Positions 626-20,000 are shown, numbered from the stretch's first letter. The stretch is DNA of 20,000 nt from an uncultured virus (IMG/VR IMGVR_UViG_3300037601_000035) (IMGVR_UViG_3300037601_000035); one strand, 5' to 3'. Numbers and translations are program-made. Notes: generated from the sequence alone by a model not told the origin.

Positions 626-1195
626 ATGGAAGTAAGAAATTTATTTAGAAAAATAAAATATCCTATAGAATTATACGATAAAAATGGAAATCTAATATAC
701 CATGAAAATAGTTCAGGTTTCTGGACAAAGAGAGAATATGATAAAAATGGCAATCAAATTTATATGATAAATTCTATGGGACTTTGGGCAAAAAACGAAT
801 TTGACGACCAAGGAAATCAAATATATTGGGAAAATAAATATAAAGTTTTTCAAGATGATAGAATAAACAAAGGAGTAAAAATGAGTACTGAACTAAAACA
901 AAAATTACAAGAAAAAGTAGCTAGAAATGAACCTATACGTAAAGATCGTATAGAATTGGACATATATCACTTTATGTCTAAAGCTGCTGAAGAAGGAGCA
1001 ATTTCTACTGTTATAGAAGGAGTAGAAGTTTCTACTCAAAAATATAATCAATCTCAATTTCAAATAGTGAAAGAATATTTAGATGAAAATGAAATCTATT
1101 ATCGCGTTCTAAATACTTATAAAAACACAAATGGTAATGATACAAAGGATATTTTTATACAATGGGGAGAAAAAGAAGTAACCGATGAAAACTAG
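626..1195 (+). CDS. Hypothetical protein with N-terminal 21-aa (Y/F)DxxGNxIY repeats; probably two genes fused in frame (second start at 881)
   Basis: The ORF track starts at GTG 617, but ATG 626 has AAGGTG upstream. Three repeat units start at 674, 737 and 800. An internal AGGAGTAAAA-ATG lies at 871-883. Confidence 0.65.
   Translation: MEVRNLFRKIKYPIELYDKNGNLIYHENSSGFWTKREYDKNGNQIYMINSMGLWAKNEFDDQGNQIYWENKYKVFQDDRINKGVKMSTELKQKLQEKVARNEPIRKDRIELDIYHFMSKAAEEGAISTVIEGVEVSTQKYNQSQFQIVKEYLDENEIYYRVLNTYKNTNGNDTKDIFIQWGEKEVTDEN
674..835 (+). repeat. Degenerate coding tandem repeat, 63-nt period, about 2.6 units
   Basis: YDKNGNLIYHENSSGFWTKRE / YDKNGNQIYMINSMGLWAKNE / FDDQGNQIYWEN. Confidence 0.8.
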
Positions 1196-2258
1196 ATACA
1201 TCCACGATAACGATAAAATATCTGTTATTAACTTTGCAGATAATTCGATTAAAGAAAAAATTTCACCTGGAGTTTATTCGGTAGAACATAGTCTTTCTTT
1301 AGGATATTTTTTAAAAATAAATAAACCTAAATTTGAGCTTCCTGAAAAAATATACGGAGATGTAGATAAAAGAATTTCTAGAATTATGAAAACTTATGAA
1401 TCAAAAGATACTTCTTTAGGTGTTCTTTTGACAGGACTTAAAGGTTCTGGTAAAACTTTGTTAATTAAGAAATTAGCAAACACTTTTATAGAAGAAAAAG
1501 AACTCCCTATAGTTCTTATAAATTCAAACTATACAGATGAACAATTTTTAAATTTTCTAAATTCGTTAAAAGAATGTGTTCTAGTATTCGATGAATTTGC
1601 AAAAAATTATCCTGATTTATATTATGATGAAGAAGGTGGACAGAGTAAACTACTTTCATTATTTGATGGTGTAAATAGTTTTAAAAGATTAATTCTTCTT
1701 TCTGAAAACAAACTTCATAAAATAAATGAATTTTACTTAAATAGACCAGGAAGAATTTATTATCATTTTACTTATGAAGAACTTTCAACTGATGTTATTA
1801 GAGATTATTGTGAAGATTTAAATGTTCCAGAATCAATGATTCAAAAAATTATTCAAGTTTCTCCGTTAATTGAAATGAATTTTGATATTTTACAAACTAT
1901 TGTAGAAGATTATTTAATTCATAAAGAAGAAAATATACATGAAATGTTAAAGATTCTAAATATTAGATATAGAAATTCTTTAATCAATTTTGAGTTGGCA
2001 AAAGTTTTAATCAATGATAAAGAAATAGAATATAAACTAAAACAAAAAAGCATTCCAGATTTTATAACAGAGGATGATTCTATTTGGGTATCTTCTCTAA
2101 TAGAATGTGAAGAAGATATATCCAATCGCGATGGAAGATTTGATAAAAAACATATCATAGAACGAAAAGGCGATATTCTTATTTTAAGAAACGCAGAGAT
2201 AACAATTCATTTAAAAAGAATAGTTCCTAATTTTATGAACTATAACACAATTTTATAA
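1185..2258 (+). CDS. AAA+ family ATPase
   Basis: Walker A GLKGSGKT, Walker B LVFDEF and SRH/arginine finger NRPGRI. Confidence 0.9.
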   Translation: MKTRYIHDNDKISVINFADNSIKEKISPGVYSVEHSLSLGYFLKINKPKFELPEKIYGDVDKRISRIMKTYESKDTSLGVLLTGLKGSGKTLLIKKLANTFIEEKELPIVLINSNYTDEQFLNFLNSLKECVLVFDEFAKNYPDLYYDEEGGQSKLLSLFDGVNSFKRLILLSENKLHKINEFYLNRPGRIYYHFTYEELSTDVIRDYCEDLNVPESMIQKIIQVSPLIEMNFDILQTIVEDYLIHKEENIHEMLKILNIRYRNSLINFELAKVLINDKEIEYKLKQKSIPDFITEDDSIWVSSLIECEEDISNRDGRFDKKHIIERKGDILILRNAEITIHLKRIVPNFMNYNTIL

Positions 2259-2275
2259 AAAGAGGAGAATAAAAA

Positions 2276-3682
2276 ATGAGCGCAGATGTTGGAATAATTG
2301 TTGGAAGATTTCAGGTTCCTTATTTACATGAAGGACATAAAAATACTATTCAAACAGTATTAGATAATCATAAACAAATTGCAATATTTTTAGGGGTAGG
2401 ACATACGAGAGGACTTCCTAAAAATCCTTATGACTACAACACTAGAAGAAATATGATGCAATCTACTTTTCCAGAAGTAGGACTTTCTATTCATTCTATA
2501 GGAGATAAAAGAAGTGATAAAGAATGGTCTATTGAATTGGATAAAAGAATTTCAGAAATCTTTCCTGGAAGGTCAATAGTTCTTTATGGATCAAGAGATT
2601 CATTTATAAGTAGGTATCACGGAGTTCATGAAACTTTAGAACTTGAAACAGATGTATTTGTATCCGGAACAGAAATTAGAGAAGAACATAAAAATAGTTT
2701 ACTTGCTGAAGAAGCATTTAGAATTGGTATTAACTATTCAGTAAATGATAGATATTTTAATCCTATTCCAACTGTAGATATAGCAGTAATTAAAAGACAA
2801 GAAGAAAAAGTATTACTTGCTAGAAAGGACGGAGAAACTAAATATAGATTTATTGGAGGTTTCGTAGATACTACAGATGAAAGTTTAGAAAGAGCAGCAA
2901 TAAGAGAATTAAAGGAAGAAGCAGGAAATGATATTGAAGTAAGTCAAGATATAAAATATGTTACTTCTAGATTAGTAGATGATTGGAGATACAGTGGTGA
3001 AGCTGTAAAGCCTTTAACTACTTTATATGCTGTAGAATATATGTGGGGAACCCCGAGACCTAGTGATGATATAGTTGAATTGAAATGGTTTGATTTAAAT
3101 TCTTTAAGTTCTGATGATCTAATGGATGAACATTTTATTTTAGCAGAAAGACTAAAAGAAAAACTGCATGATATTGATCTTTATAAAATTAAACAATACG
3201 AACCTACTTTAGATTTTGAAGATGAAGATTTTACTCCAAAGAAAAGCATAGCAGAACGTTATGGCAAAAAGGAACCTACATGGAAAGAAAAATTAGATTT
3301 AAAAAATAATTCAAAAGAAATAGTAAAAGAAAATCTAAAAGATATTTTAAAAATAGCAGGAACTTATAAAAAAGCTGCTCAAATATCAGGACTTACTAGA
3401 GATCAAATACTATATAGAGCTAGAAAGTTAAAGGTAGGTGGTAAAAAAGGAAGACCTTCTTCAAAAAAGGATTCTACAAATGGAAGACTTTCAAACAGTC
3501 AACTTAATTGGAATATCAAACTGAGTACGAAGTTAAATAATCATTCTGAAATGGCTAGTAATTTAAGAGAGCTTTCTGACAAAGCAGATGGAAAAATTGC
3601 TAAAATGGCTAAAATATCAGGGATGAGCTATGGACAAATCAATTATAGACTAAATAAATATGTTTATAATAATTTTATTTAA
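2276..3682 (+). CDS. nadM: Bifunctional NMN adenylyltransferase / Nudix (ADP-ribose pyrophosphatase-like) hydrolase with a C-terminal extension carrying two Fis-like HTH motifs
   Basis: N-terminal GRFQVPYLHEGH (HxGH nucleotidyltransferase motif) and SGTEIR. Nudix box GGFVDTTDESLERAAIRELKEEAG. The basic tail has ILKIAGTYKKAAQISGLTRDQILYRARKL and LSDKADGKIAKMAKISGMSYGQINYRLNKY. Confidence 0.88.
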   Translation: MSADVGIIVGRFQVPYLHEGHKNTIQTVLDNHKQIAIFLGVGHTRGLPKNPYDYNTRRNMMQSTFPEVGLSIHSIGDKRSDKEWSIELDKRISEIFPGRSIVLYGSRDSFISRYHGVHETLELETDVFVSGTEIREEHKNSLLAEEAFRIGINYSVNDRYFNPIPTVDIAVIKRQEEKVLLARKDGETKYRFIGGFVDTTDESLERAAIRELKEEAGNDIEVSQDIKYVTSRLVDDWRYSGEAVKPLTTLYAVEYMWGTPRPSDDIVELKWFDLNSLSSDDLMDEHFILAERLKEKLHDIDLYKIKQYEPTLDFEDEDFTPKKSIAERYGKKEPTWKEKLDLKNNSKEIVKENLKDILKIAGTYKKAAQISGLTRDQILYRARKLKVGGKKGRPSSKKDSTNGRLSNSQLNWNIKLSTKLNNHSEMASNLRELSDKADGKIAKMAKISGMSYGQINYRLNKYVYNNFI

Positions 3683-3693
3683 AGGTACATATC

Positions 3694-3888
3694 ATGTCAC
3701 AAAAACATAATTTTAAAATAGGTGATATAGTGGTATTAAATTCAGGAGGACCTGATATGAAAATAATTGGAATACTTGAAGAAGATTTAGTATATCGCTC
3801 TATTGAATGTATGTGGAAAGATAATAGAGAAATTTCTAAATTTCACAATTTTCATCCAGCAACAATACATTTAAAAGAGGAGAAATAA
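3694..3888 (+). CDS. YodC/DUF2158-like small protein
   Basis: FKIGDIVVLNSGGPDMKI...ECMW...FHPATI matches the recalled family pattern FxxGDxVxLKSGGPxMTV...CxW. Confidence 0.75.
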   Translation: MSQKHNFKIGDIVVLNSGGPDMKIIGILEEDLVYRSIECMWKDNREISKFHNFHPATIHLKEEK

Positions 3889-3890
3889 AA

Positions 3891-4082
3891 ATGAAAAAAT
3901 ATTTAATTTTAATCGCTTTATTATTTTTAATAAGCTGTAATGATAATCAAAATTCTAAAGAAGATTCTACAAAAGAACCTCAACAAGAATTACAATTTGA
4001 TGAAAGAGATACTTTAGAAGCAACTAGTCCTGAAGGAGAACTTCCTGAAGGAGAATATGAACACAATGGGCCTATTGCCTAG
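3891..4082 (+). CDS. Small lipoprotein
   Basis: MKK, then hydrophobic YLILIALLF, then lipobox LISC, followed by an acidic low-complexity mature region. Strong RBS AGGAGAAATAAAAATG. Confidence 0.75.
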   Translation: MKKYLILIALLFLISCNDNQNSKEDSTKEPQQELQFDERDTLEATSPEGELPEGEYEHNGPIA

Positions 4083-4094
4083 GAGAAATAAAAA

Positions 4095-5588
4095 ATGAAG
4101 TTTGAATTATTATATGGATCGGACTCTTATAAAGTCGGTCATCACCAACAATACCCAGAAGACGTAACTAAAATATACTCTTATTTTGAAGCAAGAGGAT
4201 TTAAAGAACCTTTTATAACTGAACCGTCTGTAGTAGTATATGGATTGGACTATCTTTTAGAAAATCTAGAAGGAATTCAATTTACTAAAGAAGGTATTGA
4301 AGAAGCAAAAGAATTCTATAAGAATCATTTTGGTTATGAAGTATTTAATGAAGAAGGATTTAACTATCTTTTAGAAAAACATAACGGAACTTTACCTTTA
4401 AAAATTAAAGCAGTTCCGGAAGGATCTGTAGTTCCAATTGGAAATGTTTTAATGACAGTAGAAAACACCGACTCTGATATGCCAGGAGAAACAGCTAAAT
4501 GGTTAACTAATTACGTAGAAACTTATTTGACACATCTTTGGTATACTACTTCAGTAGCTACACTTTCAAGAGAAATTAAAGCACTAATTTCAGCTTTTGC
4601 TTTCTTAACTCTTTCTGCAGAAGAAATGGAAGCATATCTTCCTTTTGCATTACATGATTTTGGAATGAGAGGATCTGTTGGACACGAATCTGCATATCTT
4701 GCAGGAGCTGCTCATCTTATAAACTTCTTAGGAACTGATACAACATCAGCTATGAGATTTATAGAAAAATTTCATGGAAAGGAAGAGCAAATTCCTGGTT
4801 ATTCAGTAATGGCTTCGGAACATTCTGTAATGACAATTAATGGAAAAGAAGGAGAAAAAGATCAATTCAAAAAATTAATTGACCTTTGTCCTGAAGAGAA
4901 AATAGTTTCTATAGTATCAGATTCTTATAACATTTATAATGTTGTAGAAAATTGGGTTTGTGGAGAATTTAAAGATGAAATTCTTTCAGGAACTAAAAAG
5001 ATAGTTATTCGACCGGATTCAGGAGATCCTAAAAAAGTACTTACTAGAATACTAAATATCCTAGAAGACAATTTAGAAATATCTATAAATGAAAGAGGAT
5101 ATAAAGTCCTTCCACCTCAAATAGGTTTAATCTGGGGAGACGGTATTGGATTAGAAGATATTCGAAATATTTTATCTATGATGACTACTTCTAATTGGGC
5201 AACTTCAAATATAGTATTTGGTATGGGTGGAGGACTTCATCAAAAAGTAAATAGAGATTCTTTAAAGTTTGCTTTTAAAGCATGTTATGCAGAAAAAAGA
5301 GATGGAACAACAATTGATATTTACAAAGATCCTATTACTGATCAAGGAAAGTCTTCTAAGAAAGGAAAACTAAAACTTATAGAAGATTCTAAAACAGGAG
5401 ATTTAGTAACTGTTTCTTCTTCTACAGATCCTAAACTATATGCAATGTCCGAAGAACTAGGAGATGATCAACTAAAAATTGCTTTCTTAAATGGAAAAAT
5501 AGTTAGACAAAAATCTAAATTTTCTGAAATAAGAGAAAGAGCAAAGTTAACTCCACCTAAAACAACTATTATAGATATAACAAATTAA
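4095..5588 (+). CDS. nadV: Nicotinamide phosphoribosyltransferase (NAMPT)
   Basis: Motifs DSYKVGH, LHDFGMRG, GTDT, ASEHS, SIVSDSYN, IRPDSGDP, GDGI, FGMGGGLHQKVNRD and KDPITDQGKSSKKG. Confidence 0.93.
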   Translation: MKFELLYGSDSYKVGHHQQYPEDVTKIYSYFEARGFKEPFITEPSVVVYGLDYLLENLEGIQFTKEGIEEAKEFYKNHFGYEVFNEEGFNYLLEKHNGTLPLKIKAVPEGSVVPIGNVLMTVENTDSDMPGETAKWLTNYVETYLTHLWYTTSVATLSREIKALISAFAFLTLSAEEMEAYLPFALHDFGMRGSVGHESAYLAGAAHLINFLGTDTTSAMRFIEKFHGKEEQIPGYSVMASEHSVMTINGKEGEKDQFKKLIDLCPEEKIVSIVSDSYNIYNVVENWVCGEFKDEILSGTKKIVIRPDSGDPKKVLTRILNILEDNLEISINERGYKVLPPQIGLIWGDGIGLEDIRNILSMMTTSNWATSNIVFGMGGGLHQKVNRDSLKFAFKACYAEKRDGTTIDIYKDPITDQGKSSKKGKLKLIEDSKTGDLVTVSSSTDPKLYAMSEELGDDQLKIAFLNGKIVRQKSKFSEIRERAKLTPPKTTIIDITN

Positions 5589-14058: not shown

Positions 14059-17000
14059 TTATAGAATTTTTTCAACTGAAATATCAGCATCATATAATAG
14101 AGCTTTAAAATCGTCCATTTGTCCTAAAGACTGAACGGTTAACTCGTTTGATTTTCTACGATAAACATCTATATAAGTTCGAGCAGGTCCAGTAACAACA
14201 CCAAAGACGTATTTTTCATCTTCTGTTAATTCTAAAATAGTTGTTCCTCCTATTCTAGTACATGTTGCAAGACTTACTCTATCAGGAGAACCGTTTTTAT
14301 TCCAAGTTCTCATTATATCTATAGGAGTACTTGCAGATCCTAACATTTTTACTAATGAAGCAGATGCAGTTCCTAAACCAGTTTTGATTGTATATGATCC
14401 GCCTCCACTTAATTTAAATAAACCAATTCCAGCGTGACCTAAATCATTTGTTGTATAATTTACAACCGGACTAAATGCTTCATTAAACATTACAAAATCA
14501 ATTCCAACGTTTGTAGATATTGAATATTTAGCAGTTTCTTCTGGTACTAATACAATACCACCAGTTAAATCTCCATGAGAAATTGCGCCTAAATCAGAAT
14601 CTAAAATTTCTTCTCCTACTGATCTATATCTAATTCCAGCAGCCGCAGCATTTGAAAACGTATTATAGTTTAAAATACCTGCTTGAATATCTTCATTTGT
14701 TCCTGATTGAATAGTACTTAAATATCCATAATAATTTGTACTTAAATGAATAACATTATGTTTTCCTCCAGAATTACTCGTATTCATTGAAACAGAAACT
14801 TTACCACCTGCTTCAGTAACTGAAAATTCTGAACTAAAATCTATATTGTCGTAAGTAGAAGCAACATTTGCTCCATCGCTTTGTACTGTAGGTTTAGGAG
14901 CCGTAGAGTTTATAGTTAATTGATTATCAGTTAAACTTAAACTAACATTATCTCCAGAAATAAATTCTAATTCACTATCATTATCAGAATTATGAGTAAA
15001 TGAAGTATCTACTCTAATAGTAGAATAAGAATTTGTTAAAATTGTAGAATTAGGATCTAGTGCTGCTTGTAAAGCTGTTATATTTGCATCTATCTTTAAA
15101 TAAGTATCATCTAAAATTTCATACGTAATGTATTGAGGTAACGCAAGTTTTAAATGTCCATCATTTACAACAGATACTAGATTTGCTGTTTCTACATTTG
15201 AAACGTCATGTAAAGTAACTTCAGTAAATGCTGTATTAGATGATAACAAATAAGCATCTACAGAATCTTGAGTAACTGATGTTATTCTATGAATAGCTAC
15301 CGAAGAATCTCCCATTGAAAGGCTTCCTGTCCCAGAAGAAGTTCCAAAATCAACTACAACACCAATTTTAAAACTGTTTGAACAATCTTGCGTATCACAA
15401 GCAAAATCAACTAAATCGGTTCCTTGTAATTCGTATTCTTTAGAATTATTATGTGTAATGTCATAAGAATCTCCAGTCGTTACAGAATTTAAAACAGAGA
15501 TAACTTCATTATCTTTAAATACACAAAGTTTTACCGATGCCAAAGTTCCGCCAGGATAAGTATCAATAGTAAATCTTACTCTCGCTGAAACGCTATAATA
15601 TCCATTTTGTCCTTTTTCTACTTCTATAGTTAAAGGATCTTTAGAAGTAATATTACAATTTGCATCAAAATCTTTTGTTTCAAATGAAAGATAAGAATAA
15701 TGTCCACCATAAGCAGCTGAATATTCTAAATCGGGAGTAGCAGTATCACCAGTATATCTAGCTGCTGCAGGTTGAGTTTCTTGTAAGCCTGCTCCAGGGG
15801 AAACTTTTAAATCCCAATATGTTTTTTCATCTGAAGGTGGATTTGCAATAACAGTTCCATCAGAAGATCTAAGATCAAATGCACCATTTACAGCATCTTT
15901 AAATTTAGATGAATCAGATAATTTAAGTTGATAGTTTATTTTTCCATCAGAAATGTTTTTATCTACTTGAATGTCATCTGAATTAATATCAAATCCTTTT
16001 ACTGAAATAGGATTTCCTTCTGAATCTACTGCACCAAATATTCCATTAGATGATAAATCAACTACTGAATATTTAGATTCTAATACACTTTGATTTAAAG
16101 TAACTGATCCGTCTTCTGATGTTAATACTAATCCTTCATAAATAGGATTTCCTGCATTTAAAGGATCATTAGTATTTACAGCAATCTTAGAATTTATTGG
16201 ATCTCCGTTTTCGTCTACAAAATTTCCTGTTCCGCCTGGACCACCAGGTTCTCCTGGACCACCAGTACTTCCTAAACTTACTTTATTATTTAAAACAACC
16301 CAAGAAGTTCCATTGTAACCTTCAAAATCTCCTGTGCCTGAATTATATCTAACAGCTCCTGCTTTTAATGTTCCAACAGAAGACATGTCGCCAAATATAA
16401 CTCCTCCATCTCCTGAAGTATCTATTACTTTATCATTAAATGATGCTTGATTTGTTTTAATTAAATCAACTACTTCTTGTGCAGTAATTGAAAGATCTAC
16501 CCATTCTGTTCCATCAAAACCTTGAAATTCTCCATCTTTAAATCGAATAGAACCGTCTGTTTCAATAGAAGTATCTCCTATTCTAATTCCACCGTTTATT
16601 TCTAATTTTTGTGTTGGTGTATAATCATCTGCAAAACCTACAGAAGTAGTTCCGTTCTTTCCTATTCTAAAAGTATTTACCCAAAAATCAGCATTTTCAA
16701 TTTGAAGTCTATGTAAATGCTCTGGATTTCCTGATGTTCTACCTTCAATAGATAAAATTTCTCTTCCTTCTCCTGTATCATTTATGTCATCTATATGTAA
16801 ATCAACTCCTATAGTAAATCCTGAATTTGTTAACCATCCAGATTTTTGAGTCATTGCAAAAGAATTTCCTAAATGAATATGACGACCATACATTTGGGTA
16901 GTATCATCTTCTGAATTACCTGAGTTGTAAATTTTTAATTTATAGTCATATAAATCTTTATAAAGAGAATCACTTCCTTGAATAAAAGGATACGAATCTC

Positions 17001-17505
17001 CTGGACTATCGTGTGTAGGAATTTGAAGTCCTAATGAAGAATCAGGTTTATCTATATTTGTAAGTAATAAAGTATTATTTGTCTTAGCATTAATTAAAGT
17101 TTTTAAACTTGTTTCTGCTTCTCCATCTGCTGAAGTATAACTTATGTCTTCTAAATCAAATGTTAATCCTTGAGAAAAATTAAAAGTTCCTTGCTTTATC
17201 CACCCATCATTTTTAAGCTCATAAAAATCTCCGTTAGTAGATATTACAGCATAGTCTCCTACAATTGCTGCATTTGGAAGTAAAGCAGTATTTGCTATGT
17301 TCCACCATTTAGATCCTCTTTGACCCGTCGGACCTGTTAAACCTACAGGGCCTCTAGGACCTGGTAATCCAGCACCTCCAGGATTTCCTGATTTTCCTTC
17401 AGGTCCTCCATTAGAATTTGCTATTAATTGAAAATTTTCATTTAACTTATCTACCAATACTTGAGTAGATTCGGTTACTTTTATTTCGTTTAAATTTAAT
17501 GCCAT
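14059..17505 (-). CDS. Collagen-like tail/baseplate fibre protein
   Basis: 1148 aa, G/S/T/D/N-rich. It has 11 G-X-Y triplets near the N-terminus followed by RGSKW...GDY, two G(S/A)(I/V)R(F/Y)...F(Q/E)G(F/Y)xGTxW fibre repeats, a second G-X-Y run and beta-rich C1q/BclA-like segments. Confidence 0.75.
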   Translation of the reverse strand: MALNLNEIKVTESTQVLVDKLNENFQLIANSNGGPEGKSGNPGGAGLPGPRGPVGLTGPTGQRGSKWWNIANTALLPNAAIVGDYAVISTNGDFYELKNDGWIKQGTFNFSQGLTFDLEDISYTSADGEAETSLKTLINAKTNNTLLLTNIDKPDSSLGLQIPTHDSPGDSYPFIQGSDSLYKDLYDYKLKIYNSGNSEDDTTQMYGRHIHLGNSFAMTQKSGWLTNSGFTIGVDLHIDDINDTGEGREILSIEGRTSGNPEHLHRLQIENADFWVNTFRIGKNGTTSVGFADDYTPTQKLEINGGIRIGDTSIETDGSIRFKDGEFQGFDGTEWVDLSITAQEVVDLIKTNQASFNDKVIDTSGDGGVIFGDMSSVGTLKAGAVRYNSGTGDFEGYNGTSWVVLNNKVSLGSTGGPGEPGGPGGTGNFVDENGDPINSKIAVNTNDPLNAGNPIYEGLVLTSEDGSVTLNQSVLESKYSVVDLSSNGIFGAVDSEGNPISVKGFDINSDDIQVDKNISDGKINYQLKLSDSSKFKDAVNGAFDLRSSDGTVIANPPSDEKTYWDLKVSPGAGLQETQPAAARYTGDTATPDLEYSAAYGGHYSYLSFETKDFDANCNITSKDPLTIEVEKGQNGYYSVSARVRFTIDTYPGGTLASVKLCVFKDNEVISVLNSVTTGDSYDITHNNSKEYELQGTDLVDFACDTQDCSNSFKIGVVVDFGTSSGTGSLSMGDSSVAIHRITSVTQDSVDAYLLSSNTAFTEVTLHDVSNVETANLVSVVNDGHLKLALPQYITYEILDDTYLKIDANITALQAALDPNSTILTNSYSTIRVDTSFTHNSDNDSELEFISGDNVSLSLTDNQLTINSTAPKPTVQSDGANVASTYDNIDFSSEFSVTEAGGKVSVSMNTSNSGGKHNVIHLSTNYYGYLSTIQSGTNEDIQAGILNYNTFSNAAAAGIRYRSVGEEILDSDLGAISHGDLTGGIVLVPEETAKYSISTNVGIDFVMFNEAFSPVVNYTTNDLGHAGIGLFKLSGGGSYTIKTGLGTASASLVKMLGSASTPIDIMRTWNKNGSPDRVSLATCTRIGGTTILELTEDEKYVFGVVTGPARTYIDVYRRKSNELTVQSLGQMDDFKALLYDADISVEKIL

Positions 17506-17521
17506 TTTTATTTCTTATTTT

Positions 17522-17779
17522 TTAAATGTACTTAAAACTAATTTTAATATTAAATTTAAGTTTTCTTCCTTTTTCTAAAGGTCTTTTTAATTCAATAATT
17601 TCTTTGCTTGTATCTTCAACGTTAAAATTAGAGTCTATAATTAAGTCTAAATCACTTTCAGTGTACTCTGTTGATGTAGAATCTTTACTTAATATGTTAA
17701 TGCTATCAATTGAATAAAGCTTCTCTAAGTCATTGAAAATTAATCTTTTTAAACTATCTTCTATTTCCACATCATCTAA
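17522..17779 (-). pseudogene. Detached second copy (copy B) of the 3' end of the 19166-20000 gene
   Basis: 17522-17766 aligns to 19166-19413 as a 115-nt block with 4 mismatches, a 40 vs 43-nt variable block and a 90-nt block with 5 mismatches. The reading frame is intact to the same stop. There is no convincing own start (GTG 17770, no RBS). Confidence 0.85.
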
Positions 17780-17900
17780 GTTATACTGTATTTCTTATTT
17801 TAACTATAAGAAACTTCTTGGGCTGACCTTGTAACCTCAGTCATATCTCCACAAGCGTAACTTTCTGTCCAGCCGACAGTAGAATTTTTATATACAAGGT
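17760..17900 (-). ncRNA. Putative TnpB omegaRNA (reRNA) scaffold plus guide; boundaries approximate
   Basis: It overlaps the tnpB 3' end, as is typical. Hairpins are CTGTC-ggctg-GACAG (17865-17879), TGAC...GTCA (17824-17843) and TTTCTTAT-agttaaa-ATAAGAAA (17791-17813). The tail encodes the STVGWTESYACGD peptide typical of omegaRNA-overlapping tnpB ends. Confidence 0.6.
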
Positions 17901-19023
17901 TTATTCCTTGTTTTACTAGTTCACCAACGCCTTCTCGCTTTATATTACGAGCAGCATTAATGTCTCTATTAATTGTGTGTCCGCAATCACATGTATACGT
18001 TCTATCCTTTAAAGACAAATCTTCTTTAATAGTTCCGCATTCGTTACATAACTTGCTTGAAGGGAAAAATCTATCTATTTTTATAAAATGCTTGTTTTCT
18101 TTAAAACATTTCCATTCAAGAAAAGAAAGGAATTTTGACCAACTAAAATCAGAAGCAATTGTTTTAGAAATACCGGAATTAAATTTCTTTATTCCTTCAA
18201 CGTTTAAATCTTCAAATACAAAGACATCAAATTTAGAAACTAACATGTTAGCAAGGTTTCTTTGATATTCTTTCCTCTGATTCTTTATCTTTTCATGTAA
18301 TCTTGCAATCTTCAATTTTGCTTTGTTTCTGTTGTTTGAACCTTTCTTTTTCCTTGCTAGATTTCTTTGTTTCCTTTTTAGTTTATTTTGTACTTTTCTA
18401 TAGAATTTTTGGTTTTCAAATTCCATTTCTTCACTCACCATCATGTCTTTACAAGACATGTCGGCAGCAAAAATATTTGAGATGTTTATTTTATTTTTTG
18501 GCTGAGACGTAAAATCATATTCAACCAAAACTGAAGCAAAATACTTTCCAGTTGGAGTCCTAGATACCGTTACATATTTAATCTTTCCCTCAATGGTTCT
18601 AGGGTCCCTGAATTTAATGTAACCTAATTTAGGTAACTTTATCTTAGAACCTTTAGTATGAATTGCTCCTCTAATATTATTGGTTCTATAAATATTTTTT
18701 CCATGTTTAGATTTAAATTTTGGAAATCCTCTTTTATTTTTAAAGAAATTCTGGTATGCTCTATCCATATCTATAAGTGACTGCTGAAGAGCAACTGAAT
18801 CAACTTCCTTTAACCAAGAGTATTCTTCAATTTTCTTGATTTTAGTTAAATCATTTATTGAATCATACTTAGTGTACCTTTGTTTAGAATGTGCATAAAG
18901 TTCTTCTTTATAGGCTAAAGCATTATTGTAAACAAACCTCACGCAACCAAAAGTCTTATCAAGTAAAACTTTTTGTTCTTTGTTTGGATATATCCTTAAT
19001 TTATATGCTTTATTCTGCTTCAT
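17800..19023 (-). CDS. tnpB: IS200/IS605-family RNA-guided endonuclease TnpB
   Basis: N-terminal KAYKLRIYPNKEQ...FGCVRFVYN HTH, GFPKFK, IKLPKLG, RuvC-I AADMS, RuvC-II FEDLN, FPSSKLCNECG...CDCG zinc finger and RuvC-III RDINAARNI. Confidence 0.95.
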   Translation of the reverse strand: MKQNKAYKLRIYPNKEQKVLLDKTFGCVRFVYNNALAYKEELYAHSKQRYTKYDSINDLTKIKKIEEYSWLKEVDSVALQQSLIDMDRAYQNFFKNKRGFPKFKSKHGKNIYRTNNIRGAIHTKGSKIKLPKLGYIKFRDPRTIEGKIKYVTVSRTPTGKYFASVLVEYDFTSQPKNKINISNIFAADMSCKDMMVSEEMEFENQKFYRKVQNKLKRKQRNLARKKKGSNNRNKAKLKIARLHEKIKNQRKEYQRNLANMLVSKFDVFVFEDLNVEGIKKFNSGISKTIASDFSWSKFLSFLEWKCFKENKHFIKIDRFFPSSKLCNECGTIKEDLSLKDRTYTCDCGHTINRDINAARNIKREGVGELVKQGINLVYKNSTVGWTESYACGDMTEVTRSAQEVSYS

Positions 19024-19026
19024 ACT

Positions 19027-19053
19027 CTATATATATTTTGCAGAAATATATAG
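19027..19053. promoter_or_regulatory. Near-palindromic AT element (possible bidirectional promoter or left-end hairpin) immediately upstream of tnpB
   Basis: CTATATATATTTTGCAGAAATATATAG contains AAATATATA on both strands. It ends 3 nt before the tnpB ATG and 22 nt before a divergent ATG at 19076. Confidence 0.45.
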
Positions 19054-19165
19054 TTTATAAAAAACGATTAAAAAGATGACAAAATTACAAATTAAATTAG
19101 AACAACTTTTTGAAAATACCCTTGTTTCTGAAAACGGAGTATCTATTAATGAAAGTGTAAATTTA

Positions 19166-19413
19166 TTAAATATACTTAAAACTAATTTTAATATTAAATT
19201 TAAGTTTTCTTCCTTTTTCTAAAGGTCTTTTTAATTCAATAATTTCCTTACTTGTATCTTCAACGTTAAAATTAGAATCTCTTATCATATCATTTTCAAA
19301 AATATTAACATAAGTAGTTTCTATAGAATCTTTACTTAATATGTTAATACTATCGACTGAATAAAGATTCTCTAAGTCATTAAAAATTAATCTTTTTAAA
19401 CTATCTTCTATTT
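19166..19413. repeat. Direct repeat copy A (partner of 17522-17766)
   Basis: 196 of 205 nt are identical outside a central variable block. Confidence 0.95.
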
Positions 19414-20000
19414 TTGCTTCTATTGAAAGAGGATATATCCTTTCATAATAAGGAAGTATTAAAGAAAGTAATTCATCTCTTAACGCTTCTTTAACGTTTA
19501 CGTTTACTGTTAATTGTTCTTTAACTTGATTAAACGTTACGTGTTTACTTAGAATATTTAAATCAATTTCTGTAGAACTATTAATAAGTTGAGAATTAAA
19601 ATAGTTTCTATTTAATAATGGATCAAAGAATCCCGAAAGCTTTTGTTCATTTGTATTTGAATAATAAGAATACGAATCCTGATCTAAAACAGAAGAATAT
19701 AAAGTTTTTAAGTTATTTGCAAACTTCTGAGTTTTTTGATACATTGAAAATTCATTTTCTTTTACATTTTGTTTCAATTGATCGGAAGGTCCCATCTTTT
19801 TAATTAATTCTTCGTACTTAGCAAAATTTAAATGGTTCCATAAAAACTTAGTATTCAATTTATAAAAATCTATTTGAAATAATGTAGATAAATTATAATC
19901 TTCTCTTAAAGAAAAATAAGTTAATTTATCTGTCATTGGGTCGTATTCACCTTCTGCTCTAAGTAATGAAGTATTTACTTGTGCTTCTTCTAATTTAAAA
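19166..20000 (-). CDS. C-terminal part of a large gene, probably structural (5'-truncated by the window edge); ends in copy A of the duplicated segment
   Basis: The frame is open from the window edge (FKLEEAQVNTSLLRAEGEYDPMTDKL...), so ATG 19936 is internal. It is co-oriented upstream of the fibre and baseplate genes. Confidence 0.8.
   Translation of the reverse strand, partial: FKLEEAQVNTSLLRAEGEYDPMTDKLTYFSLREDYNLSTLFQIDFYKLNTKFLWNHLNFAKYEELIKKMGPSDQLKQNVKENEFSMYQKTQKFANNLKTLYSSVLDQDSYSYYSNTNEQKLSGFFDPLLNRNYFNSQLINSSTEIDLNILSKHVTFNQVKEQLTVNVNVKEALRDELLSLILPYYERIYPLSIEAKIEDSLKRLIFNDLENLYSVDSINILSKDSIETTYVNIFENDMIRDSNFNVEDTSKEIIELKRPLEKGRKLKFNIKISFKYI

Follow-up and report, generated by a model that had tools for sequence, protein, structure and literature searches.

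The DNA analysed here is a 20,000-nt stretch (the window, taken at its full length) of the uncultured virus IMGVR_UViG_3300037601_000035 from IMG/VR, in which a tnpB gene and its predicted omegaRNA scaffold lie inside a long gene, referred to as gene X. On the minus strand, the order was gene X, a 137-nt spacer, tnpB, copy B, 16 nt of intergenic sequence and a gene for a fibre-like protein of 1148 aa. An insert of ∼1.65 kb, consisting of copy A, the spacer, tnpB and the scaffold, was found between codons Y1829 and N1830 of the 1917-codon gene X, or at most 6 nt further, and the native sequence was kept whole. We are highly confident of this anatomy, that is, of a cassette that carries a spare gene end and takes its guide from the displaced native end. 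The features are as follows.

19166–20000, minus strand: part of gene X inside the window (the gene runs off the window; 1917 aa in total; open reading frame (ORF) L002 5006..10759)
19161–19432, minus strand: copy A, a foreign replacement 3′ end of gene X (codons 1830–1917, stop at 19166–19168, 5 nt beyond)
19024–19160, minus strand: spacer between copy A and tnpB (promoter-like motif at 19030–19064; plus-strand ORF with ATG at 19076)
17800–19023, minus strand: tnpB, 407 aa, predicted RNA-guided RuvC nuclease of IS200/IS605 (ISDra2-like) type (by Pfam, PHROG and alignment with ISDra2 TnpB)
17780–17917, minus strand: predicted omegaRNA scaffold, overlapping the tnpB 3′ end (core 17806–17917, terminal hairpin 17791–17813, tail 17780–17790)
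17760–17779, minus strand: predicted template of the guide, covering the first ∼20 nt of copy B (start possible anywhere from 17785 to 17775)
17517–17785, minus strand: copy B, the native 3′ end of gene X in its displaced position (87 codons, the first being Y; stop at 17522–17524; ahead of the native spacer and the fibre gene)
14059–17505, minus strand: tail-fibre-like gene, the putative right-hand homology arm (PHROG tail-fibre matches weak, 6e-4 and 1e-3)

Copies A and B formed a 263-bp diverged duplication flanking the element, with one block (D1) of 125 nt at 94% identity and another (D2) of 97 nt at 92%; a second comparison gave 116 nt at 96.6% and 90 nt at 94.4%. The gene X cluster consisted of three proteins, namely P0001 of this phage, P0007 with 3 differences and an A-type end, and P0008 of 1915 aa, which was uninterrupted, 97.5% identical to P0001 and carried a B-type end. 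At the protein level, P0008 reads ERIYNLDDVEIED across the insertion point. P0001 and P0008 differed at 47 of 1917 positions, of which 25 were spread over residues 1–1829 and 22 were packed in 1830–1917, and the first difference in the A region was P1830N, exactly at the insertion point. Copy B showed 3 differences from the last 87 residues of P0008, whereas copy A differed at 22 of 88 residues. Because the differences from P0008 jump at residue 1830 and copy B nearly matches P0008, these alignments identify copy B as the native end of the lineage and copy A as a foreign allele. Since the uninterrupted P0008 carries a B-type end, element-less B-type alleles evidently exist in related genomes.

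The two copies appeared to have separate histories as genes. In two divergent patches, copy A was longer by a codon each, and neither extra codon was present in P0008 or in any of the five more distant homologs. Copy B agreed in length with all homologs in the two variable patches, and in-frame stops lay upstream of it. The second divergent patch (17642–17669 in B, 19286–19316 in A) was as divergent as the patch that holds the guide. Outside the patches, 7 codon differences between A and B were synonymous and 5 were non-synonymous, 3 of the latter lying at the edges of the second patch. With 82% non-synonymous changes expected, the 7:5 split had a P of 0.002. The synonymous excess therefore shows that both copies evolved as working genes; A and B diverged as working alleles before meeting, and copy B is not a copy decaying in situ.

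An assembly artefact was considered as the source of the arrangement and was rejected, as both junctions were bridged in contigs of independent runs. The scaffold/copy-B junction was bridged by X10 record 4 (17707–18589) and X12 record 10 (17736–17849), and the copy-A/spacer junction by X14 record 28 (19107–19257). A second IMG/VR contig also carried the locus, with 100% identity along 6148 nt.

The tnpB product matched the Pfam families Cas12f1-like_TNB (1.5e-20), HTH_OrfB_IS605 (1.5e-19) and OrfB_IS605 (1.5e-17), all above the cut-off, and PHROG 506 (2.9e-114). It aligned end to end with ISDra2 TnpB (8bf8, E 7.4e-72), and both CxxC pairs were present. The RuvC D/E/D residues were found at aligned columns, as AADMS, FVFEDL and NRDINAA against VDVG, GTEHL and DRDENAA of 8bf8, the catalytic columns of which we take to be D191/E278/D361. 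By these comparisons TnpB is intact and nuclease-competent. In run X13, a second tnpB variant co-occurred with the reference type over 18406–18655, with 16 differences in 145 nt. Because 10 of the 11 listed differing sites of this variant were third codon positions, tnpB is judged to be under purifying selection in the population. The 211.6-kb genome contained one tnpB and one scaffold, and no tnpA was found in the window or the genome neighbourhood. A domesticated, nuclease-dead TnpB that acts as a TldR-like RNA-guided repressor of gene X or of the fibre gene would fit the loss of tnpA and of the left end, and also a tnpB that sits behind a phage-type promoter motif. But the RuvC D/E/D and the zinc-finger cysteines are all present in a full-length protein, and the guide mismatches the resident functional gene. 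This reading was rejected on the catalytic residues and is considered extremely improbable.

Relatives of the scaffold were gathered with two conserved motifs of the 3′ end of tnpB used as a pair, which yielded 8 stretches from IMG/VR, 30 from metagenomes and 3 from genomes. The 36 distinct sequences comprised 7 unrelated chance matches and 29 with the same scaffold core, 20 of which were aligned (9 near-duplicates were left out) and 18 folded. The 18-sequence fold contained 19 consensus pairs, 8 of them with compensatory changes on both sides, and almost no broken cells. A covariance model (R1) made from the scaffold alignment gave a single match in the genome, at 17806–17917 with an E of 2.2e-14. 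A search of Rfam (E ≤ 1, positions 17000–20000) returned a chance miRNA match alone and no omegaRNA family, and the fold energy of 17760–17917 (z = –1.58) was not informative by itself. By the covariation, a conserved and structured omegaRNA scaffold is present at the tnpB 3′ end, and it is a reasonable reading that TnpB and the omegaRNA form an expressed and selected pair.

The 3′ end of the scaffold sets the start of the guide. The terminal hairpin of 8 bp (arms TTTCTTAT/ATAAGAAA, 17791–17813) overlaps the tnpB stop at 17800–17802. After the hairpin, the minus strand continues with the tail TACAGTATAAC (17790–17780, 11 nt) and then with TTAGATGATGTGGAAATAGA (17779–17760), for which the ungapped counterpart in the complete gene is TCAATAGAAGCAAAAATAGA (19426–19407). 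All of these sequences read as given in the original prediction, which had been made from the window alone. In the tnpA-bearing relatives (L004 type), the right end ...GGTAGTTCAA was followed by 11 different flanks, and 4 left flanks ended in TTTAT. The right ends of other relatives were TTCAC, CTCAC or TTCGC, and the scaffold in the window ends in none of these forms. The tail closest to that of the window was found in L006 (ACAGTATGAACG against ACAGTATAACT). In L006, homology to a distant uninterrupted allele (L066, 57% aa identity) resumes after GAACG, and in L035 GAACG lies directly before the duplicated start of the downstream gene; no uninterrupted allele of the L006 site was found among close relatives. 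Because GAACG ends the tails of L006 and L035, the boundary in the window would fall between 17780 and 17779 or one base on.

The original prediction had likewise placed the boundary at TAAC (17780–17783). That placement is plausible through the two GAACG tails, but it is ambiguous by up to 6 nt: the gene X family and P0008 read ...I-Y-N-L-D-D-V-E, and the six bases that close the scaffold, TATAAC, double as the Y-N codons of the gene, with gene X homology reaching 6 nt upstream of the TAAC boundary. Either 6 nt of microhomology made the joint, or the scaffold already stops at ...ACAG or ...ACAGTAT. The boundary between scaffold and guide is thus usable only as a range, 17775–17786. The scaffold might instead end elsewhere, so that the guide would lie upstream of copy B or would fall at 17766 or below, where A and B are identical, and the argument from seed mismatches would then be void. 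The absence from the window of the family's usual ...TTCA[AC] end, the distance of 2 to 24 nt from terminal hairpin to end among the relatives, and the lack of significance of the regional fold alone would agree with this. However, the L006 and L035 tails put the end at TAAC or TAACT, and gene X homology covers 17785 downward, so that no scaffold would extend beyond ∼17775. We regard such an end as very unlikely.

As a ruler for the boundary, long-range pairing of the invariant AAGTTAC with the 3′ tail was tried and was dropped, as random flanks scored equal or better in the 20 sequences. In a comparison of L006:3727–3790 with L066:2254–2330, the 20 nt that follow a TAM-like ATTAT (TAM, transposon-adjacent motif) in L066 were missing beside the cassette; this gap could be a target-length deletion or divergence of the spacer. 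An exact 13-mer (minus strand AAAATAAGAAATA) occurred twice, at 17509–17521 after the copy-B stop and before the fibre gene, and at 17789–17801, where it forms the 3′ arm of the terminal hairpin after the tnpB stop. By an estimate for DNA of this composition, chance alone would give about one such exact repeat in 3 kb, and the 13-mer may be due to chance or may be a trace of joint formation.

When TTAGATGATGTGGAAATAGA was compared with TCAATAGAAGCAAAAATAGA, mismatches were observed at positions 2, 4, 5, 6, 9, 11, 12 and 13. The 8 mismatches in the first 13 nt noticed earlier were therefore confirmed; they were also all those of the 20-mer, and at the 6.7% divergence of 210 well-aligned coding bases the probability of at least 8 in 13 was 3.7e-7. 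Beyond the first 13 positions the copies were 92–97% identical apart from the second divergent patch, and the high identity reported for this part holds with that exception. The ungapped counterpart was not in the homologous register, since this stretch is one codon longer in copy A, and comparisons aligned by codon gave 14–15 mismatches of 20. With the guide taken to start at 17785, 17782, 17779 or 17778, the mismatches to copy A numbered 14, 15, 8 and 8 of 20, always with TAM-proximal positions among them, and they were concentrated in the first 13 positions. The only perfect match of the guide 20-mer in the genome was itself, and the next best sites had 4 mismatches. The predicted template lies directly 3′ of the scaffold, and the guide would, as had been predicted, be templated by the start of copy B. 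By sequence comparison, the functional allele of the carrier, copy A, is not a target of the guide. The original prediction had further described the carried allele as immune to its own nuclease and competitor alleles of B type as cut, and this interpretation was supported in part. The TAM-proximal mismatches at all plausible starts agree with an immune carrier, but an immunity that was selected does not follow, as copy A is divergent along its whole length.

The left side of the cassette showed no recognisable end of an insertion sequence (IS): the 137-nt spacer had none and gave no alignment with the left end of the tnpA-bearing relatives. A 35-mer in the spacer (19030–19064) recurred at C1:39528–39562 (97%), and its 13–16-nt core was present at 7 further sites of the genome; loose ends of X13 at 19030 and 19064 belong to the other genomic copy of the 35-nt motif. 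The motif core, TATAAACTATATATT, recurs through the phage genome, and at both loci of the 35-mer a divergent ORF starts ∼15 nt off. The motif is probably a phage promoter or a bidirectional control region, as its recurrence suggests. The divergent short plus-strand ORF of the spacer (ATG at 19076) was truncated by copy A, and its first codons remain. Because tnpA is absent and there is no left-end hairpin, the cassette is not expected to transpose. Transposition looks unlikely for it, and it would at most be an IS1341-like derivative with tnpB only.

The duplication might also have arisen by IS200/IS605 transposition, with TnpA supplied in trans, followed by unequal crossing-over between the IS copies of two related genomes, one after the stop of gene X and one inside the gene. 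Exchanges of this kind classically leave a tandem duplication whose joint holds an IS, and the tnpA-bearing relatives do insert at many sites, as seen in the 11 right flanks and the 4 TTTAT left flanks. Against this, the spacer contains neither a left-end hairpin nor a remnant of tnpA, and the genome contains a single tnpB and a single scaffold. Moreover, copy A is far more divergent than the rest of gene X, which exchange within a lineage does not predict, and a similar locus, L005, lacks any left end, with its copy A abutting the ATG. We consider this origin improbable.

In L005, from an unrelated phage with a TnpB 50% identical to that of the window, the last 23 nt of the upstream gene occurred twice (2467–2489 and 3703–3725). 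Copy A ended at the tnpB ATG, and copy B followed directly after the right end ...TAGTTCAC. The site was uninterrupted in the loci of 7 relatives (L058–L061 and L063–L065, ∼2470–2500), which represented three distinct alleles, and copy A of L005 mismatched the guide at positions 2, 3, 11, 18 and 23. It was also observed that this copy A provides a Shine–Dalgarno-like motif, GGGAG, 5 nt before the tnpB ATG. The spare-end layout occurs where the cassette sits inside a gene, and it is not general to phage tnpB.

Flank repeats at L037 and L041 were examined as possible insertion duplications and were rejected, being recurrent promoter-like motifs. These repeats are explained by the motif TTTACTAATAAA, which lies near gene starts, upstream or downstream of tnpB, in L004, L033, L035 and L041 and is probably a promoter of the relatives' phages. 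A complete IS605-type element, with tnpA overlapping tnpB, was present in L004, L025, L040, L047 and L051; phage and metagenome contigs had it at many sites. The right end ...GGTAGTTCAA of the element was seen also in L023, L027, L031, L039, L048 and L054; the left flank was TTTAT, and GC-rich hairpins lay at both ends. TAM-like flanks in the relatives were TTTAT (L004 type, 4 left flanks), ATTAT (L006) and TATAC or TATAT (the L005 site), all of them flanks of other TnpB proteins. Five loci had no ORF of at least 150 aa across the scaffold core and may be solo right ends or omegaRNA-only remnants. A small ORF that ends in ...SESDILRR(L/I)(I/L)D... was found directly upstream of tnpB in L008 (∼2400–2500), L037 (∼960–1084) and L052 (∼300–390). 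It resembles 'Arc', the name reportedly given in a 2026 preprint to ribbon-helix-helix proteins of IS605 elements.

The phage record comprises 211,581 nt at 27% G+C with a CheckV completeness of 82 (IMG/VR), and the window is a part of it. Because baseplate-wedge, fibre-like and nicotinamide adenine dinucleotide (NAD)-salvage genes are present, the source virus, which comes from a pond, is by gene content a large tailed phage. Gene X lies upstream of the tail fibre and baseplate genes and has a Peptidase_M10 domain (3.5e-9, residues 1217–1374), and its homologs are 1892–1936 aa long. A baseplate wedge protein gene (PHROG, 1.5e-20) neighbours the fibre-like gene. At 1185–5588 of the window there was a cluster of NAD-salvage type, with an ATPase, a cytidyltransferase/NUDIX fusion and a nicotinamide phosphoribosyltransferase (PHROG 448, 1e-144).

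With this arrangement in view, we lean slightly towards the reading that a TnpB/omegaRNA cassette without transposase, which carries a spare foreign end inside gene X, acts now as a homing or rival-excluding nuclease. In a mixed infection, the TnpB–omegaRNA complex would cut those alleles of related phages that are B-type and uninterrupted. With the carrier genome as template, repair would use gene X as homology on the left and copy B with the fibre gene on the right, and copy A, tnpB and the scaffold would be copied in; alternatively, the rival would simply be destroyed. The carrier itself would be safe for two reasons. Firstly, scaffold DNA would replace the TAM before copy B. Secondly, copy A would mismatch the guide at 8–15 of 20 positions, mostly TAM-proximal, while keeping gene X whole. 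Having neither tnpA nor a left-end hairpin, the cassette would spread by homing only. Published data agree with this reading: mismatches in the first 1–4 nt abolish R-loop formation by Ymu1 TnpB, and cleavage by Dra2 TnpB needs a heteroduplex of ∼12–16 bp (PMC12803034).

A passive origin was weighed against the homing reading. The cassette and the foreign end could have arrived once, by an old homing event or by illegitimate or microhomology recombination with a different phage lineage, leaving a TnpB that is idle on gene X alleles today; the guide would then be whatever follows the scaffold, and the A/B difference would be ordinary allelic divergence in a hypervariable loop. The six shared bases TATAAC of the Y-N codons fit a microhomology joint, the spacer is pieced together from a phage promoter motif and the truncated divergent ORF and is no IS end, and the second patch is as divergent as the guide patch. 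On the other hand, purifying selection acts on an intact TnpB and an intact scaffold, and several samples contain the cassette in identical form. L005 is an independent case of the layout, and the insertion point is exactly where the foreign allele begins to differ. We consider a passive relic fairly unlikely, although less so than the crossing-over origin.

Several observations spoke against an active homing or rival-excluding nuclease, some of them also in favour of a relic. The main weakness is that no TAM could be derived for this TnpB from the flanks of its relatives. None of the 16 listed runs was an RNA run. No uninterrupted allele or joint was seen in runs X10, X12, X13 and X14, the low shares of which correspond to fragmentary assemblies that all include tnpB, and IMG/VR searches for uninterrupted-allele DNA with the gene X C-terminus and a 26-nt stretch of copy B gave the same phage alone. 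If the rival has the same Tyr-Asn codons as the scaffold end TATAAC, self and rival would look alike on the TAM side. Both patches are variable across the gene X family, and the second is irrelevant to the guide; the divergence of copy A may simply reflect its foreign origin and need not be selected immunity. Chromatin immunoprecipitation (ChIP) data suggest that TnpB binding tolerates guide mismatches (PMC10055086). At L005, the uninterrupted alleles mismatched the guide at 6–7 of 23 positions, with no perfect target among them. At L035, 12–16 nt of the downstream gene's start were duplicated, and the duplicated copy matched the guide in the first 12 nt. A flanking duplication was found in none of six cultured-phage tnpB loci, chosen from 226 records with a relative.

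The cassette was compared with known systems. It resembles the IS200/IS605 TnpB–omegaRNA systems of ISDra2 type in its protein family, domain order and retained catalytic residues (Meers et al. 2023, PMC10055086; PMC13565253; see also Karvelis et al. 2021), in an omegaRNA that overlaps the tnpB 3′ end, with a predicted guide just past the right end, and in the proposed role, in which an allele without the element is cut and recombination then copies the element. A review considers it theoretically possible that co-infecting phages or plasmids are invaded by 'non-restorative homing' (PMC13565253). Unlike an autonomous IS200/IS605 element, the cassette has neither tnpA nor a left end, both of which were looked for. 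IS200/IS605 elements make no target duplication, whereas the cassette is flanked by a diverged duplication of 263 bp. Because of that duplication, the cassette would need a second self-protection beside TAM loss, in the form of the guide-mismatched spare allele. It also differs in its position inside a gene of a phage structural module.

The mobile ORFs (mORFs) of fungal mitochondria, in Allomyces macrogynus atp6 and in Glomus atp6, atp9, cox2 and nad3, share with the cassette a foreign C-terminus in frame, an endonuclease gene and a displaced native C-terminus (PMC3630166, and the Allomyces work cited in it). In both cases the native piece is nearer to the relatives than the inserted one, here with 3 of 87 differences from P0008 for B and 22 of 88 for A. 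The mORF nucleases are, however, protein-only LAGLIDADG or GIY-YIG enzymes, whereas here the nuclease is a TnpB whose specificity would be written by the displaced native end; the host is a mitochondrion there and a bacteriophage here. The free-standing homing endonucleases Seg and Mob of T-even phages, which act in intronless homing and localized marker exclusion, are likewise encoded between conserved genes of the phage. Substitutions in a conserved gene close by set self apart from rival, and flanking markers undergo co-conversion (PMC13565253). Recognition is by protein in those systems and would be by guide RNA and TAM here, and the carrier of the cassette, unlike theirs, holds a resistant allele together with a copy of the sensitive sequence. 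In IStrons (a group I intron with IS605/IS607 tnpB; PMC10690162), a tnpB element also lies inside a gene without killing it, but the gene is restored by RNA splicing, whereas the cassette restores it by a duplicate gene end in DNA. A literature search, which left supplements and subscription journals outside, found no paper describing such a cassette.

TnpB preserves its transposon by cutting the emptied donor site. The locus described here holds, in sequence, all the parts for pure homing. The nuclease and its scaffold are intact, the displaced native end would write the guide, the invaded gene stays whole through a resistant spare end, and a near-identical relative has an uninterrupted allele of the guide type. 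The spread of TnpB between co-infecting phages is treated only as a theoretical possibility in the review (PMC13565253). It is conceivable, although we lean slightly against it, that phages harbour a class of RNA-guided 'cleave-and-rescue' homing cassettes. Members of such a class would be TnpB–omegaRNA units without transposase and left end, located in essential virion genes, with a guide-resistant spare end as rescue and the displaced native end as guide, and they would spread and exclude rivals purely by cutting uninterrupted alleles in co-infection. If true, the finding would explain the survival of tnpB in a phage without transposase, and would link transposon-encoded guide RNAs with phage homing endonucleases and marker exclusion and with mitochondrial mORFs, of which the cassette would be an RNA-guided counterpart. 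Synthetic gene drives would likewise have a natural counterpart in it, and cleave-and-rescue drives a compact design provided by nature.

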